From the NCBI GenBank assembly GCA_964549125.1, contig CAZJUD010000075.1, positions 1 to 31,838 on the forward strand: DNA of 31,838 nucleotides, written 5' to 3'. The notes under the pieces are model-generated. The model was not told the origin of the DNA. It worked only from the letters and a program-made list of their open reading frames with translations, and did not search any database. Numbering within the stretch: the stretch's first letter is position 1; each line of letters starts with the position of its first letter. This document shows positions 10,819 to 22,534 of this stretch, one piece after another. This stretch comes from an uncultured Caldimicrobium sp. (lineage in GTDB: Bacteria > Desulfobacterota > Thermodesulfobacteria > Thermodesulfobacteriales > Thermodesulfobacteriaceae). A program made the position numbers and the translations under genes.

Positions 10819-11682
10819 CTACTCTAAGGCTTTAAGATTGTAAAGATATCTCTGCATAAAGACTAAGGTTCCCTTAACCCTTTCTAAAAGGTTTGATGCG
10901 CTCTTTAGCTCAGTCTTTGCCTGCTCTAAATCTCTTTCTAAGCTTGAGAGGCTTTTCTCTAAGACCGGCAGAGCCTCTTCAAATCTTTCTCGGCTAAGAC
11001 TAAAGAAAAATCTATCCCAAAGAGTAAGAACCATCATCAGAGTTTGGGGAAGGGCTTGATAAGGGACAGGGATTATCCCTTCTCTTTCAAGGTCAAAAAA
11101 GATGCGAAGCTTAAGATAGCTATACAAACCATCAGGGACGACCATAAGGGCAAAGCCTACAGACCGCTCATCCTTGAGATAGCTTATTATCTCCTTTGCT
11201 CGATCCTTGGCTCGCCGGACGATTTCCCGTTCATCCTCAGGAGTTAGTTCAGACTTTGCTAAAATCTCTGGTGATGAGAGCTTAGAATCTATGGGGACAA
11301 ACTTTTCTCCCTTTAACCGCAGGGCAAACTCAACAACACCTGAAGATAGCTTAACATTACGAACAATGGTCCCTGGCGGAAAGAGTGAAAGAAGCTCCTC
11401 AACTGCCCGTTCTCCAACCTGACCTGAACGCCTGCCAAAAAGCACTCCTGAGATCTTCTTTACCTCCTCTGCAATGCCTTTCCCAAGCTCCTCCGCCGTG
11501 TAGAGCTTTACTAAGTCTTTTTTTATCTCCTGAAGGTCCTTTAGTCTTTCTTCAAGCTTTATACTCACCTGATTAAAGGATTTGTCTATTCTTCCTTCCA
11601 ATAGGCTTTTAATTTTTAGATAAAGATAGAGTAAGATTATAAAATTAATGATCAGAAGACTAACAATTAGGATATCCTTCAT
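10819..11682 (-). CDS. rmuC: DNA recombination protein RmuC family
   Basis: N-terminal TM and coiled coil, G..GE..VEELL, VPIDSK nuclease motif, FALMVVP, C-terminal coiled coil. Short for the family. Confidence 0.75.
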   Translation of the reverse strand: MKDILIVSLLIINFIILLYLYLKIKSLLEGRIDKSFNQVSIKLEERLKDLQEIKKDLVKLYTAEELGKGIAEEVKKISGVLFGRRSGQVGERAVEELLSLFPPGTIVRNVKLSSGVVEFALRLKGEKFVPIDSKLSSPEILAKSELTPEDEREIVRRAKDRAKEIISYLKDERSVGFALMVVPDGLYSYLKLRIFFDLEREGIIPVPYQALPQTLMMVLTLWDRFFFSLSRERFEEALPVLEKSLSSLERDLEQAKTELKSASNLLERVKGTLVFMQRYLYNLKALE

Positions 11683-12077
11683 TTATTAAATGACAAAATT
11701 TTTAGGGCCATATCAACCACAGATAAACCAATTATTGGACAGCCTAACTTGTTTTCTGGGATACCTTCAAGCTCAGCTATGATGTCTTCCTTTGAGATTT
11801 CCTCAAGGATACGTCTTAGGTCTTTTCCCTTGAGCTTCTCAGTTAAGACACTCAAAAATGCTACAGCAGGAACGCACCCTTGCAGTTTAAACTTTACATC
11901 CTCTACGATAAAATGTCTTAGTTTAAAGTAGACCTTAAGTAAGCAAGGAGAAGGGGGAGAGTCCACGCTACATTGGGGATTGGAAATTTCCACAATGGGA
12001 TAGGCATCGGGTATTTCGCCTACATTTTTGGCTGATAAGAATTCTTTAATCAGTCTTTTGCTATAGTAACTATTCAA
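11679..12077 (-). CDS. Divergent IscU/NifU-N scaffold paralog
   Basis: Aligns by eye to the adjacent IscU (KNVGEIPDA, NPQC, VEDVKFKLQGC, ISKEDIIAELEGIPENKLGC). TTG start. Confidence 0.8.
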   Translation of the reverse strand: MNSYYSKRLIKEFLSAKNVGEIPDAYPIVEISNPQCSVDSPPSPCLLKVYFKLRHFIVEDVKFKLQGCVPAVAFLSVLTEKLKGKDLRRILEEISKEDIIAELEGIPENKLGCPIIGLSVVDMALKILSFNK

Positions 12078-12086
12078 TTTTAAGCT

Positions 12087-12464
12087 CTATTTCTTTTGTT
12101 CTTTCTTGCTTTGATAATCTTCAATAGCCTTTTTCAAGGCGTCAAGCCCAAGCACAGAACAATGGACTTTCTGAGGAGGAAGACCACCAAGCTCTTCTAC
12201 AATATCCTCCTTTTTAATCTTTAAAGCTTCTTCTATGGTTTTGCCTTTTACCATCTCTGTAAGAATGCTTGAGACGGCTATCGCTGCTGCACAGCCAAAG
12301 GTCTTAAATTTTATATCTTCTATCCTATCATCTTTAACCTTGATGTAAAGATACATCATGTCTCCACAAACAGGATTTCCTTCCACACCCACCCCATCGG
12401 CATCGGGGATTTCTCCTACATTCCTTGGGTTCATGAAATGTTCAACTACCTTTGCACTGTACAT
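12087..12464 (-). CDS. iscU: Fe-S cluster assembly scaffold IscU/NifU-N
   Basis: YSAKVVEHFMNPRNVG, GNPVCGD, FKTFGCAAAIA, LPPQKVHCS; all canonical ligands present. Confidence 0.95.
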   Translation of the reverse strand: MYSAKVVEHFMNPRNVGEIPDADGVGVEGNPVCGDMMYLYIKVKDDRIEDIKFKTFGCAAAIAVSSILTEMVKGKTIEEALKIKKEDIVEELGGLPPQKVHCSVLGLDALKKAIEDYQSKKEQKK

Positions 12465-12495: not shown

Positions 12496-13704
12496 TTAGT
12501 GGTGAGGGCAAGTGGCTTTTTCCCATTTTTCCATATCCTTCCATCCTTCTTTAAAAGGAGAAAGCTCTCTTAACCTTTCTACAACCTCAGGCATGGTGTT
12601 TAATACATAATCTATGTCCTCTTCTTGAGTGTCTTTACTGAGCACAAAGAGGATTGACCCCTGTATAAGATGGGCAGGATAACCCATGGAAGACAAAACT
12701 GGCGAGGCTTTAAGTGCTTTAGAACTGCAAGTTGAGCCACTTGAAGTGTAGATTCCCTTAAAGGCTAACATGAGAAGCATGGCTTCCCCTTCAACGAACT
12801 CCACGATGAAGCTTGCATGACCAGGTAGTCGTTTTTCTGGATGCCCTGTTAGATGTAGATTGGGTATCCTTTCCAAAAGTCCCTTTATCAATCTATCTCT
12901 TAGTGCCTGCATCTTTGGCACCATCGTTGGTAGGTTTTGACGAAGCAGCCTTGCTGCTATACCCATTCCTACAATGGCAGGCACGTTTTCCGTTCCTCCT
13001 CTACGACCTCCCTCTTGAATTCCACCATAGATAATGGGTTGAACCCTGACCCCCTTTCTTATGTATAGTGCTCCAGCTCCTTTTGGACCATAGAACAGAT
13101 GAGCAGAAAGAGATAGGGCATCCACTCCTAAGTCGTCCACATCAACCTTCATCTGAGGGATTGCTGCCACTGCATCAGTATGCACCAAAGCACCAACCCT
13201 TTTGGCTAACCTTACCACTTCTTTAACGGGTTGTATTGTCCCAACCTCTGGATTAGCTAACTGAACAGAAACTAACACCGTATCCTCTCGCAAAGCTCGC
13301 TCTAAGAAGTTTAGGTCTATCACTCCATACCTGTCCACAGGAAGAAAGGTAACCTCAAAACCTTCTCTCTCAAGATGCCTTGCTGGATTAGTTATGGAAT
13401 GATGCTCTACTGTAGAAACGATGACATGGTTTCCTTTCTTTTTGTTAGCCTTGGCTAAGCCCACTATAGCCATATTGTTTGATTCGGTGCCTCCGGAAGT
13501 GAAGATTATTTCTTGGGGTTTAGCCTTGATGAGTTCTGCTACCACCACTCTTGCCTCTTCAACAGCCTCCCTTGCCCTTTGACCAAGGTCGTAAGGACTA
13601 AGGGCATTGCCAAAAATTTCCCTAAAATAGGGTAGCATACCTTCTAAAACTTCTTCTGCAGGCTTGGTAGTGGCAAAGTTGTCTAAATATACAGTTCTGT
13701 TCAT
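12496..13704 (-). CDS. iscS: IscS/NifS-family protein lacking the PLP Schiff-base lysine
   Basis: YLDNFATT, FTSGGTES, VEHHS, HTDAVAA, SAHLFYGPKG (Leu at the Lys position), GGTENV, SSGSTCSS (Cys326 retained). Confidence 0.9.
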   Translation of the reverse strand: MNRTVYLDNFATTKPAEEVLEGMLPYFREIFGNALSPYDLGQRAREAVEEARVVVAELIKAKPQEIIFTSGGTESNNMAIVGLAKANKKKGNHVIVSTVEHHSITNPARHLEREGFEVTFLPVDRYGVIDLNFLERALREDTVLVSVQLANPEVGTIQPVKEVVRLAKRVGALVHTDAVAAIPQMKVDVDDLGVDALSLSAHLFYGPKGAGALYIRKGVRVQPIIYGGIQEGGRRGGTENVPAIVGMGIAARLLRQNLPTMVPKMQALRDRLIKGLLERIPNLHLTGHPEKRLPGHASFIVEFVEGEAMLLMLAFKGIYTSSGSTCSSKALKASPVLSSMGYPAHLIQGSILFVLSKDTQEEDIDYVLNTMPEVVERLRELSPFKEGWKDMEKWEKATCPHH

Positions 13705-13952
13705 TTCTTCCTCCTTATATAAAACCTGTAGGTCTCTCCATCCTCATAGACGCCAAGAAATTCATGTCCAAAGACTTCACACCATCTTGGCACGTCCTCC
13801 AAGGCTCTATCGTAATCTGTGATCAGTTCAAGCACTTGCCCAACTTCAATTTTTTTTATGCTTTCGTTCAACTCTAAAAGATGAACAGGACACATAAGGT
13901 AAACCACATCAACGCTAAGGTCAGCATTTAGCGGTCTATCCAAAATGTTCAT
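13701..13952 (-). CDS. tusA: Sulfurtransferase TusA/SirA family
   Basis: 83 aa; MCPVH (CPxP-like), GQVLELITD, DVPRWC..FGHEFL, YRFYIRR. ATGA overlap with iscS. Confidence 0.85.
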   Translation of the reverse strand: MNILDRPLNADLSVDVVYLMCPVHLLELNESIKKIEVGQVLELITDYDRALEDVPRWCEVFGHEFLGVYEDGETYRFYIRRKK

Positions 13953-14063: not shown

Positions 14064-14525
14064 TTATAAAGAAAAGACTGCTTTGACTTTAAATTTTTTC
14101 TTTGCTGGGAAGGCATAGAATTTCAAACCGTAGGCGTTGCTTAGGTTTTCGAGGTAGGGGCGTAGGTCCTTAGGGCTTGGAAGGACGAGGGTGAACCAAA
14201 AATTTAGAGAATGCTCTCTTAGGTAGGCGTGAGTTACCTCTGGGAGGTCTGCTATTTCTTGGGCTAAGTAGAGTTTAGATTCAGGGATTGAGGTTGCGCA
14301 AAGACAGGTAAAGTGTTTGAGCTTATGGGAGTCAGGACTTGCCCCAAGGTGTCTAATTATGCCTTCCTCTTTTAGTTTTTTTAAAAAGGATAAGACCTCA
14401 TCTTCGGTTAGCCCAACTTTTTCAGCAAGAACCTTGAAGGGTTCAGGATGTAGGGGAAAATCCTCTTGAATAAGGTTTAAAAGTTCTCTGTAGGGCTCCT
14501 TAAGGTCTGATATTGATAAGCTCAT
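14064..14525 (-). CDS. ahbA: Siroheme decarboxylase subunit AhbA (Lrp/AsnC-like fold)
   Basis: IQEDFPLHPEPF, GIIRHLGA, PEVTHAYLREH, NFWFT; typical of the AhbA/NirD-L family. Confidence 0.8.
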   Translation of the reverse strand: MSLSISDLKEPYRELLNLIQEDFPLHPEPFKVLAEKVGLTEDEVLSFLKKLKEEGIIRHLGASPDSHKLKHFTCLCATSIPESKLYLAQEIADLPEVTHAYLREHSLNFWFTLVLPSPKDLRPYLENLSNAYGLKFYAFPAKKKFKVKAVFSL

Positions 14526-20890: not shown

Positions 20891-22534
20891 ATGCCCCTTG
20901 GAAAACCCTTCTATCCCTTTCCAATCCTTCTTATCCTCTTGATTTTTCTCTTAGTCTCTTCTCAAACCTTTTCCTTTACTTTGAAGTCTTTTAAGCAAAA
21001 CGGCAAAAAAAAAGAGGTTCCTTTGCTTACTACTGGAAAGCCTGAGGGCTGTCTTTTCTGCCACGACGAGAAGGTTGAGGAGAAGGTGCATGCCCGGGAG
21101 ATGCTTGGTTGTTCAAGCTGTCATCTTGGAAACCCTTTAACAGTAGATTACCGTGCGGCTCACAAAGGCGTGGTTAAGAATCCTTCAGACTTAAGGATTG
21201 TCCACAAGACCTGCGGTCAGGCAAACTGCCACCCACAAGACCTAAACAAGGTGAAAAATAGCCTTATGGCTACAAACCATGGCATCCTTGTTAGGCTTCT
21301 AAAGGTCTTTGGAGAAGAGGCAATCCTTAAGGAACATCCAAACATCAGCGTAGAAGACTTATACAGCCTTAGGACCTCATCCCTTGCCCTGGATTACTTC
21401 AAGAAGCTCTGCGGCTCCTGCCACCTTTTTCTGGAAAAGGGAAGGCTTCCCGATTTTTTGGCAGAAAAGGGAGGTGGATGCTCAGCCTGCCATCTTGTTG
21501 GTAATAAAGAAGATTTAAAAAACCGCAAGCTTCATCCTCGTCTTACAGCAAAGATCCCTCTTGAGAAGTGTGTTCTCTGCCACAACCGTAGTGGAAGGAT
21601 CGGCTTTACCTATCAGGGGCTCTATGAGGATGAGCAGAGCGGGGAGGGTGAGGTGGTATACATCGACGGAAGAAAGCTACGAAAGATCAAGCCTGATGTT
21701 CATTATAAGGCAGGGCTTCACTGCATTGATTGCCATACAAGGGATGAGGTCATGGGGAACGGAACCTTCTATCGTAAGATTGAGGATGCCCTGCAGGTTG
21801 ATTGCGAAACCTGTCACTTAAGAAAAGGCTTAACTAAGGCTGGAACAAGGCTTGCAAACATCGTAGAAAGGGATGGGAAGGTTTTTCAGAAGGGAAAGGT
21901 TGATGAAAGGTGGCATTTAGTTAAGGCTCCTTCAAAGGACTGTCAGGATAGGTATCACAGGAGGCTATCCTGCTCAGCCTGCCATGCTAAGTATGTTCCT
22001 CAATGCTACGGCTGTCATGTAAGGTATGATCCGAGGGAGAGACACCTTGACAAGATCCTTGCAAGAGAAACAAAGGGGCTTTGGGAGGAGCATGAGTCCT
22101 ATCGCCGGATTGATGAGCCAACTCTTGCAGTAAAAAAAGACAAGATTGTTGTGGTTACTCCAGGTTGACAGGATTTTGTGTCTATCCTCTCGGAGGAGGG
22201 GAAGTTAGCTCGCTACTTTGAAAGCATTACCTTTGCTCAGATTGAGCCCCATTCAACGCAAAGAAAGGGCCGATCTTGTAAAGATTGCCATCAAAACCCT
22301 AAGGCAATCGGACTTGGCTACCGAGAGGGATTGGATAGGCTATCCCGGGTTGGGGACCGTGAGGGAAGGGCTTTGGTTAAGTTTAACCGTGAAGGACTAA
22401 GACCCTTCACCAAGGAGGAGTTAGAGAGAGTCCTAAAGGTTGGGCTTTGTTTGTCCTGCCATGAAGAAAGGGATAGAATTTTTAAGAGCTGGAGGAGCGA
22501 TTTAAAATGTCCAAGGTTAAAGACCTTACCTTGA
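20891..22534 (+). CDS. Multiheme c-type cytochrome (11 CxxCH plus 1 CX4CH), probable selenoprotein with in-frame TGA at 22166-22168
   Basis: Track ORFs 20891-22168 and 22178-22534 are in one frame, joined by GGT-TGA-CAG-GAT-TTT-GTG (TPG-U-QDFV). N-terminal signal/anchor, 9 CxxCH plus CGQANCH before the TGA and 2 CxxCH after it. SECIS-like hairpin downstream. Confidence 0.8.
22182..22208 (+). promoter_or_regulatory. Putative bacterial SECIS element
   Basis: TCCTCTC-GGAG-GAGGGGA (22185-22202): 7-bp stem with one G-U, G-initiated tetraloop starting 23 nt after the TGA. Extendable by CTA/TAG pairing (22182-22184 with 22206-22208). Confidence 0.65.

Follow-up and report, generated by a model that had tools for sequence, protein, structure and literature searches.

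A lysine-less IscS encoded between tusA-like and iscU genes in Caldimicrobium, a probable pseudo-desulfurase from a broad clade of anaerobes

We analysed a 31,838-nucleotide (nt) stretch of DNA from an uncultured Caldimicrobium sp. (contig CAZJUD010000075.1 of assembly GCA_964549125.1), called the window throughout, and in particular a minus-strand iscS-like gene that lies between a tusA-like sulfur-carrier gene and an iscU scaffold gene. The product of this gene, referred to below as the window IscS, has leucine at the position of the lysine that forms the Schiff base with pyridoxal phosphate (PLP). The features of the gene are as follows, with residues mapped by alignment to IscS of E. coli MG1655.

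12496..13704 (-): iscS gene, Lys-less IscS/NifS-like protein of 402 amino acids (aa); intact open reading frame with an Aminotran_5 match
13710..13715 (-): AGGAGG ribosome-binding site, 5 nt before the iscS ATG
13249..13251 (-): Pro152, codon CCA, at the E. coli Asn155 position (contact to PLP O3')
13165..13167 (-): Ala180, codon GCA, at the E. coli Gln183 position (contact to PLP O3')
13096..13098 (-): Leu203, codon CTG, at the position of the PLP Schiff-base lysine (E. coli Lys206)
12727..12729 (-): Cys326, codon TGC, in the mobile SSGSTC loop (E. coli Cys328)
12649..12651 (-): Leu352, codon CTC, at the position of the substrate-carboxylate arginine (E. coli Arg354)

The open reading frame (ORF) is intact and follows a strong ribosome-binding site, as an earlier note on this DNA had recorded, and its start codon shares the letters ATGA with the stop codon of the tusA-like gene (a 4-nt overlap). 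Pfam Aminotran_5 (PF00266) matches residues 5-365 with E=3.7e-80. An AlphaFold2 model with a mean predicted local distance difference test score (pLDDT) of 87.4 predicts an intact class-V aminotransferase fold, in which pLDDT is low only at the 227-236 loop, the Cys loop at 327-331 and the C-terminus; a low value at 327-331 is expected, because the Cys loop is mobile. When compared by Foldseek with PDB releases up to 8 April 2026, without the 9w entries discussed at the end, the model gave template-modelling (TM) scores of 0.88-0.91 against human NFS1, Archaeoglobus fulgidus IscS and E. coli IscS, and of about 0.9 against NifS also. The best NCBIfam match was TIGR03402 (NifS), at 482.8 bits against a cutoff of 530.75, and the other equivalogs, TIGR02006 (363.8 against 643.2) and NF010611 (377.4 against 548), were under their cutoffs as well.

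The alignment to the E. coli enzyme bears out most of what the earlier note had read at the active site. Lys206 corresponds to Leu203, whose codon is two base changes away from AAG; DAVQ has become DAVA through Ala180 and NNE has become NPE through Pro152, and the SSGSTC loop with its cysteine is kept. To these we add Leu352, a further loss absent from the note, by which the substrate arginine is gone too. Two other changes that it had listed, GNALS and RGGT, are present but are not diagnostic of the Lys-less state: GNALS is a peculiarity of Caldimicrobium (relatives have GNPLS or GNPQS), and RGGT is also found in canonical enzymes, 15 of 128 of which carry Gly at that position. E. coli His104, Asp180 and His205 are retained as His101, Asp177 and His202, together with the phosphate-cup Thr73 (GGTE) and Ser200. 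Because the equivalents of Lys206, Gln183, Asn155 and Arg354 are all replaced, the window IscS is almost certainly incapable of PLP-dependent cysteine desulfurase action. Without the Lys no internal aldimine can form, and without the Arg there is nothing to hold the carboxylate of the substrate. Lys, Arg and Gln are gone and the NCBIfam families NifS and IscS both score it under their cutoffs, so that it should not carry an annotation as an active desulfurase.

The loss of catalytic residues is also the sole point in favour of a more trivial explanation, namely a sequencing error or a decaying pseudogene. A same-species protein, 99% identical, is encoded on contigs from JGI 3300025067, ENA ERZ27245611, ENA ERZ650669 and Logan SRR5468531. 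In these four assemblies the gene order is that of the window and iscS differs by 10-13 nt, and at residues 152, 180, 203, 326 and 352 every one of them has the codon of the window; Lys was not recovered in any of these independent assemblies, in agreement with the earlier note's view that the Leu codon is no error. Within the species, 7-10 synonymous differences stand against 3 non-synonymous ones, a non-synonymous to synonymous ratio (pN/pS) of 0.09-0.13. The corresponding ratio of substitution rates (dN/dS) for unsaturated orthologue pairs is 0.06 in Caldimicrobium (L002/L003) and 0.07-0.09 in Nitrospirota (L005-L007); with Caldimicrobium orthologues at a greater distance dS has reached saturation and pN is only 0.13-0.16. 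Overall, dN/dS is about 0.05-0.13, and iscS is under strong purifying selection rather than the relaxed selection that the earlier note had named as a sign of decay. Orthologues in many metagenome-assembled genomes (MAGs) of Caldimicrobium, at 71-99% identity, are all Lys-less. Together with the intact ORF and its strong ribosome-binding site, the four-assembly codons and the dN/dS values rule out error and decay, to which we attach a negligible probability.

A Lys-less IscS in a bacterium is not the rarity that the earlier note had implied. In a search of a 5.8-billion-protein collection, all of the best 120 matches (57-99% identity) lacked Lys in the Lys206 column, with Q, L, E, R or I in its place; the Gln position was occupied by Ala or Ser, an SGS[AT]C loop was kept, and the names attached to them were Caldimicrobium, Thermosulfuriphilus, Nitrospirae/Thermodesulfovibrionia and Archaeoglobaceae. 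The best 80 loci taken from a contig search with one genome per species were likewise mostly Lys-less. They include four Caldimicrobium MAGs, Nitrospirota, a Deferribacteres MAG and an Aquifex MAG, many Aminicenantes, Dehalococcoidia, MAGs named 'Eubacteriales' and Elusimicrobia, and also WOR-3, Desulfarculaceae, Acidobacteriota and Geothermincolales. Among the best 150 clusters from a library of representatives at 50% identity, 120 had the canonical K/Q/R combination and about 20 were Lys-less. The window IscS is therefore not a one-off; it belongs to a large Lys-less clade that extends over numerous phyla of anaerobic bacteria and into some archaea.

A residue census of a dereplicated set of 259 sequences, 128 of them canonical and 120 forming the Lys-less clade, shows what was lost and what was kept. 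The canonical group has Lys in 128/128, Gln in 120/128, Asn in 124/128 and Arg in 128/128. In the Lys-less clade the Lys position holds Q, L, E or S and the Asn155 position P, S, N or G, the Gln position is Ala in 103 of 120, and the Arg position is Val in 94, Leu in 17 and Ile in 5 (V/L/I in 116/120). Lys, Gln and Arg were thus lost together among the homologues, the Lys-less ones almost always having Ala plus Val or Leu. Other residues of the PLP site are relaxed in the clade: the phosphate Thr (A47/T39/S30), Ser200 (S56/A52) and His202 (H67/D20/N18/Q10). Cys326, Asp177 and His101 are fixed, each in 119/120. Ser103, Ala180, Thr286 and Val or Leu352 are specific to the clade, and the window IscS has S103, A180, T286 and L352. 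This pattern of relaxed PLP-site residues beside fixed Cys326, Asp177 and His101 is the signature, as read from the alignment, of a family that would have given up PLP chemistry and kept the Cys loop.

In a neighbour-joining (NJ) tree of the same 259 sequences with 100 bootstraps, 119 of the 125 sequences without Lys and Arg formed one clade with the window IscS, and none of the 128 canonical sequences fell inside it. The clade contains an Archaeoglobaceae MAG protein and, near its base, the protein of PDB entry 9wfy; the A. fulgidus group (4 sequences) and a pair from Elusimicrobia lie outside it. Deep nodes are weak: the exact split appeared in 1/100 bootstraps, and the best split of loss against canonical had a mean F1 of 0.98. 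A shared single origin with A. fulgidus IscS2 was not recovered by NJ, although support at the deep nodes is too low for its rejection. In identity, the window IscS is 54.5% to 9wfy, 46.5% to A. fulgidus IscS2 and 48-51% to canonical enzymes.

A subgroup from Thermodesulfovibrionia (L029, L040 and L047; protein P0122) keeps Lys, has Ala for Gln and Val or Leu for Arg, carries the loop SASTC and sits among canonical sequences in the tree. It may represent an intermediate or a differently specialised state.

On either side of iscS, three further minus-strand genes make up the rest of the putative operon, and a NirD/L- or AhbA-like gene lies directly ahead of it.

14064..14525 (-): NirD/L- or AhbA-like gene with an AsnC-type helix-turn-helix; AhbA score 125.8 bits, below the cutoff of 140
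13701..13952 (-): tusA-like sulfur-carrier gene, 83 aa; Pfam TusA 4.8e-19, NCBIfam TusA 43.5 bits, below the cutoff of 78
12087..12464 (-): iscU scaffold gene, 125 aa; NifU_N 2.3e-51, TIGR03419 (NifU_clost) 197.3 bits, above the cutoff of 187.9
11679..12077 (-): second, divergent IscU-like gene, 132 aa; 73 bits, well short of the NCBIfam cutoff of 188

Read along the minus strand, the NirD/L-like gene is followed after a 111-nt gap by the tusA-like gene and iscS, then after 31 nt by iscU and after a further 9 nt by the second iscU-like gene, which overlaps rmuC by 4 nt. Judged from this arrangement, iscS is co-transcribed with a canonical iscU. IscU itself has Cys33/Asp35, Cys58, His101/Cys102 and the N-terminal Tyr, all present in the alignment to E. 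coli IscU. The TusA-like protein has its active-site Cys in the motif LMCPVH and a second Cys in PRWC, both of which are kept in 27/27 aligned neighbours. The second IscU-like protein keeps the three Cys; its CGD has become CSVD, followed by a 7-aa insert (SPPSPC) with an extra Cys, and Gly stands in place of the His before the third Cys. The same-species loci L081-L084 and Caldimicrobium L004 also have its gene; in L001-L003 it was not found. Unlike the E. coli isc locus, this one contains none of hscBA, iscA or fdx in the window annotation, and a second, canonical desulfurase was found neither in the window nor in the +/-10 kb flanks of L001 and L081-L084.

Neighbourhoods were counted at a distance of 2.5 kb for the loci with adequate flanks, 49 of them Lys-less and 7 canonical. 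An iscU gene lies within this distance in 43 of the 49 Lys-less loci. A tusA gene is adjacent in every close relative with enough flank (L001-L003, L005-L009, L085 and L087), the order being tusA-iscS-iscU in the nearest relatives and iscS-iscU-tusA in Aminicenantes and others. In Thermosulfuriphilus ammonigenes (L087), the Archaeoglobaceae MAG (L085) and the Nitrospirota MAGs (L006-L009) the operon is headed by an Rrf2 gene whose product has the IscR-like motif C-x6-C-x5-C-x2-H; an IscR-like Rrf2 ahead of tusA-iscS-iscU is as expected for an operon of iron-sulfur (Fe-S) biogenesis. The NirD/L-like gene fills that slot in Caldimicrobium (including L002 and L003), and by analogy its product may regulate the operon here instead of acting as a subunit of siroheme decarboxylase.

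The helices that contact IscU are known from the E. coli complex (PMC2854127), and their conservation within the Lys-less clade is 0.86 for alpha8 and 0.69 for alpha12, against 0.68 overall. Of the residues that contact TusA in E. coli, Glu49, Asp52 and Arg55 correspond to Glu46, Glu49 and Arg52 of the window IscS. The earlier note's proposal of a non-desulfurase IscS in a bacterium is partly supported: the residue losses, selection, Cys loop, IscU-contact helices and iscU linkage speak for it, and its implied rarity is not borne out.

One Dehalococcoidales MAG (L025, 4362-7609) carries a canonical iscS-iscU pair (K/Q/R) in tandem with a Lys-less iscS-iscU pair. The two types coexist there and are presumably not redundant.

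Downstream of rmuC on the minus strand lie a gene for a fusion of PilZ and phosphoribosyltransferase domains (10815 to 9820) and one for a sulfite-exporter membrane protein of the TauE/SafE family (9805 to 9050), in an order that is conserved in the same-species assemblies. Elsewhere in the window, two adjacent plus-strand ORFs of 425 and 118 aa (20891-22534) give weak Pfam matches, under the cutoff, of multihaem cytochrome c3/c7 type. A plus-strand radical-SAM protein with an N-terminal B12-binding-like domain (725-2083) adjoins an FtsJ-type methyltransferase and an SbcD-like nuclease.

A precedent for an IscS without the lysine exists in archaea. IscS2 of A. fulgidus is experimentally inactive and has been proposed to donate a Cys ligand to the cluster on IscU, with sulfide as a possible sulfur source (PMC8918507, PMC7585200); the earlier note had likewise described an inactive donor of a Cys ligand with Asp at the Lys position, and the SSND sequence of the protein and both papers agree. 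On this precedent and on the residues and linkage described above, we consider that the window IscS is probably (at roughly 0.6) a catalytically dead pseudo-desulfurase of the IscS/MisS type, which binds to IscU and in which Cys326 ligates the cluster or relays a persulfide, the sulfur having a source other than cysteine. It keeps the type-I fold, the dimer scaffold, the IscU-docking helices and the mobile Cys326 loop, and with the IscU encoded 31 nt downstream it would form an (IscS-IscU)2 complex, as A. fulgidus IscS2 does. Cys326 would then serve as the fourth ligand of a nascent [2Fe-2S] cluster, as a persulfide relay, or as both. We infer the docking of IscU and the ligand or shuttle role of Cys326 from the A. 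fulgidus example (PMC8918507, PMC7585200). Sulfide or sulfane sulfur, and not free cysteine, would be the source of the sulfur. Because a TusA-like carrier is co-translated with the window IscS and widely linked to its relatives, it may be this carrier that hands the sulfur over, from a TusA persulfide to Cys326 and on to IscU, a flow that would run opposite to the E. coli route from IscS to TusA. A bolder form of the proposal, which we regard as possible but on balance doubtful, is that tusA-iscS-iscU, headed in relatives by the IscR-like regulator, is a self-contained, cysteine-independent Fe-S module common among anaerobes, in which dissimilatory sulfane sulfur passes from TusA through the Cys loop to IscU.

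Several observations weigh against the pseudo-desulfurase and the TusA route proposed for it. Because the protein keeps Thr73, Ser200, His202, Asp177 and His101, it may still bind PLP or pyridoxamine phosphate (PMP) non-covalently, and residual or different chemistry may also be retained. E. coli Trp45, another TusA contact, is replaced by Gln. The enrichment of tusA within 2.5 kb, at 19 of the 49 Lys-less loci and 0 of the 7 canonical ones, is not significant alone (Fisher p=0.08), nor do the loci count as phylogenetically independent; the test is underpowered, because nearly all of the compared loci are Lys-less and canonical controls are few. In E. coli, TusA and IscU compete for IscS (PMC11302665), and by analogy the TusA-like protein could equally be an acceptor or competitor here.

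The same retained residues underlie the view that the window IscS has remained an enzyme, a cysteine desulfurase or some other one that uses PLP or PMP, and that it forms no internal aldimine and holds its cofactor non-covalently. This would be in line with the finding that A. fulgidus IscS binds PMP or PLP without the Lys, but both the wild-type protein and its D199K variant are inactive (PMC8918507). The Lys is in addition the catalytic base, and the substrate Arg, the Gln and the Asn are gone with it. The relaxation of the phosphate Thr, Ser200 and His202 across the clade argues against a conserved cofactor chemistry, and we judge this explanation very unlikely. Another possibility, in which the protein would be a regulatory pseudoenzyme that tunes sulfur flux as a heterodimer partner or competitor of a canonical desulfurase encoded elsewhere in the genome, runs counter to the fact that each Lys-less gene usually has its own IscU, which suggests a self-contained pair, and to the lack of any canonical desulfurase within the 31.8-kb window. 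We also know of no description of heterodimers among type-I desulfurases. Some genomes do possess both types, among them the Dehalococcoidales MAG mentioned above and Methanosarcina acetivorans with IscS1 and IscS2 (PMC7585200). We consider a regulatory role quite unlikely.

A further alternative is a sulfur-relay role. Here the window IscS would be mainly a hub for TusA-dependent thiolation rather than a factor of Fe-S assembly, with Cys326 loading sulfane sulfur non-enzymatically and passing it to TusA for tRNA s2U, molybdopterin or dissimilatory sulfur trafficking. Such a hub would account for the translational overlap of tusA and iscS, the linkage kept in the nearest relatives, the invariant active-site Cys of TusA and the retained acidic and arginine contacts (E. 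coli E49/D52/R55 as E46/E49/R52). However, IscU is the steadier neighbour (43/49 against 19/49 for TusA), the operon of the relatives is headed by an IscR-like regulator and the IscU-contact helices are highly conserved. We therefore think a relay devoted to thiolation unlikely, and favour the pseudo-desulfurase that serves IscU.

The question of how Fe-S clusters can be assembled where no cysteine desulfurase is at hand is still open; it was raised by A. fulgidus IscS2 and by the SMS system (PMC8918507, PMC12192291). The present data open no new category; they present the Lys-less state as a solution that is stable, under strong selection and phylogenetically broad rather than as an archaeal oddity. 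The locus also points to an additional component that can be tested, the co-translated TusA-like carrier, and a thermophilic, sulfur-disproportionating bacterium with a compact tusA-iscS-iscU operon would be a good system in which to address the sulfur source. The minimal iron-sulfur (MIS) system consists of MisS and MisU (Garcia et al. 2022, as represented in PMC13066941, PMC12192291 and PMC12442378), and PMC12192291 credits it with a functional cysteine desulfurase. In view of how broad the Lys-less clade is, that account would seem to need some qualification. If the cysteine-independent module were real, much of what is called MIS would not use cysteine at all, and sulfur would flow against the textbook relay from IscS to TusA.

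Recent reviews (PMC13066941, PMC12192291, PMC7585200) still treat MIS as based on a desulfurase, and as exceptions they cite only A. fulgidus IscS and M. acetivorans IscS1, a Lys-less protein that occurs beside the active IscS2 (PMC7585200). Our own survey of the literature on Lys-less IscS in bacteria, which did not cover Garcia et al. 2022, returned the same two proteins and nothing else. Provisionally, and with the same gap in coverage, the breadth of the bacterial Lys-less clade and its tusA linkage seem to be under-reported.

In the PDB, the best sequence matches are 406-aa entries labelled 'cysteine desulfurase' (9wep, 9wer, 9wew, 9wfe, 9wfy and others, about 440 bits), followed by A. 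fulgidus IscS2 (4EB5, 4HVK and 4R5F, 375 bits); no publication was found for the 9wfy series. The crystal structures of that series (9wfy, 9wfe, 9wew, 9wer, 9wep, 9wf8 and 9wfb) differ from one another only at active-site positions: 9wfy has GGIE, NRE, DAAP, AHL and GSVVF, and the others proceed stepwise to GGTE, NNE, DAVQ, AHK and GSVRF. Because 9wfy is 97% identical to the gene of the Aquifex MAG (L010), which has exactly the same active-site residues, we infer that it is a natural Lys-less IscS of Aquifex type and that the other entries are probably back-mutants. Like the window IscS it is bacterial, has Leu at the Lys position and falls in the same NJ clade. It differs in having lost the phosphate Thr (GGIE, against GGTE in the window IscS), in having Arg at Asn155 and Pro at Gln183, where the window IscS has Pro and Ala, and in having Val rather than Leu at the Arg position. 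The iscS of the Aquifex MAG (L010, 1118-2347), unlike most members of the clade, has no iscU or tusA in the 10 kb examined downstream.

With A. fulgidus IscS2 (AF_0564; PDB 4EB5, 4EB7, 4HVK and 4R5F) the window IscS shares the fold (TM 0.88-0.90) and the triple loss, which reads SSND/DATA/GTLLL in the archaeal protein (K to D, Q to A, R to L) and SAHL/DAVA/GSILF here. Both keep the Cys loop and have iscU encoded alongside, the complex with IscU being only predicted in our case. The archaeal protein is nevertheless no closer in sequence to the window IscS than the canonical enzymes are; it has Asp rather than Leu at the Lys position and Asn for the preceding His, lacks the C-terminal extension of the window IscS, and stands outside its clade in the NJ tree, where deep nodes are weak. 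The E. coli IscS-IscU-TusA system (PDB 3LVL and 3LVJ) has the same fold (TM 0.89-0.90) and the same types of partner, and its IscU-contact helices and part of its TusA acidic patch are conserved in the window IscS. It differs in that its IscS, at 41% identity, is catalytically active, its tusA is not linked to the isc operon and its sulfur moves from IscS to TusA. The MIS system resembles the window locus in its two-gene core of iscS-like and iscU-like genes, found in anaerobes without hscBA, iscA or fdx; the window locus differs from it in the missing catalytic residues of IscS and in the additional tusA-like and second IscU-like genes. The nearest known counterpart is A. fulgidus IscS2 by function, 9wfy by sequence and tree, and MIS by system.

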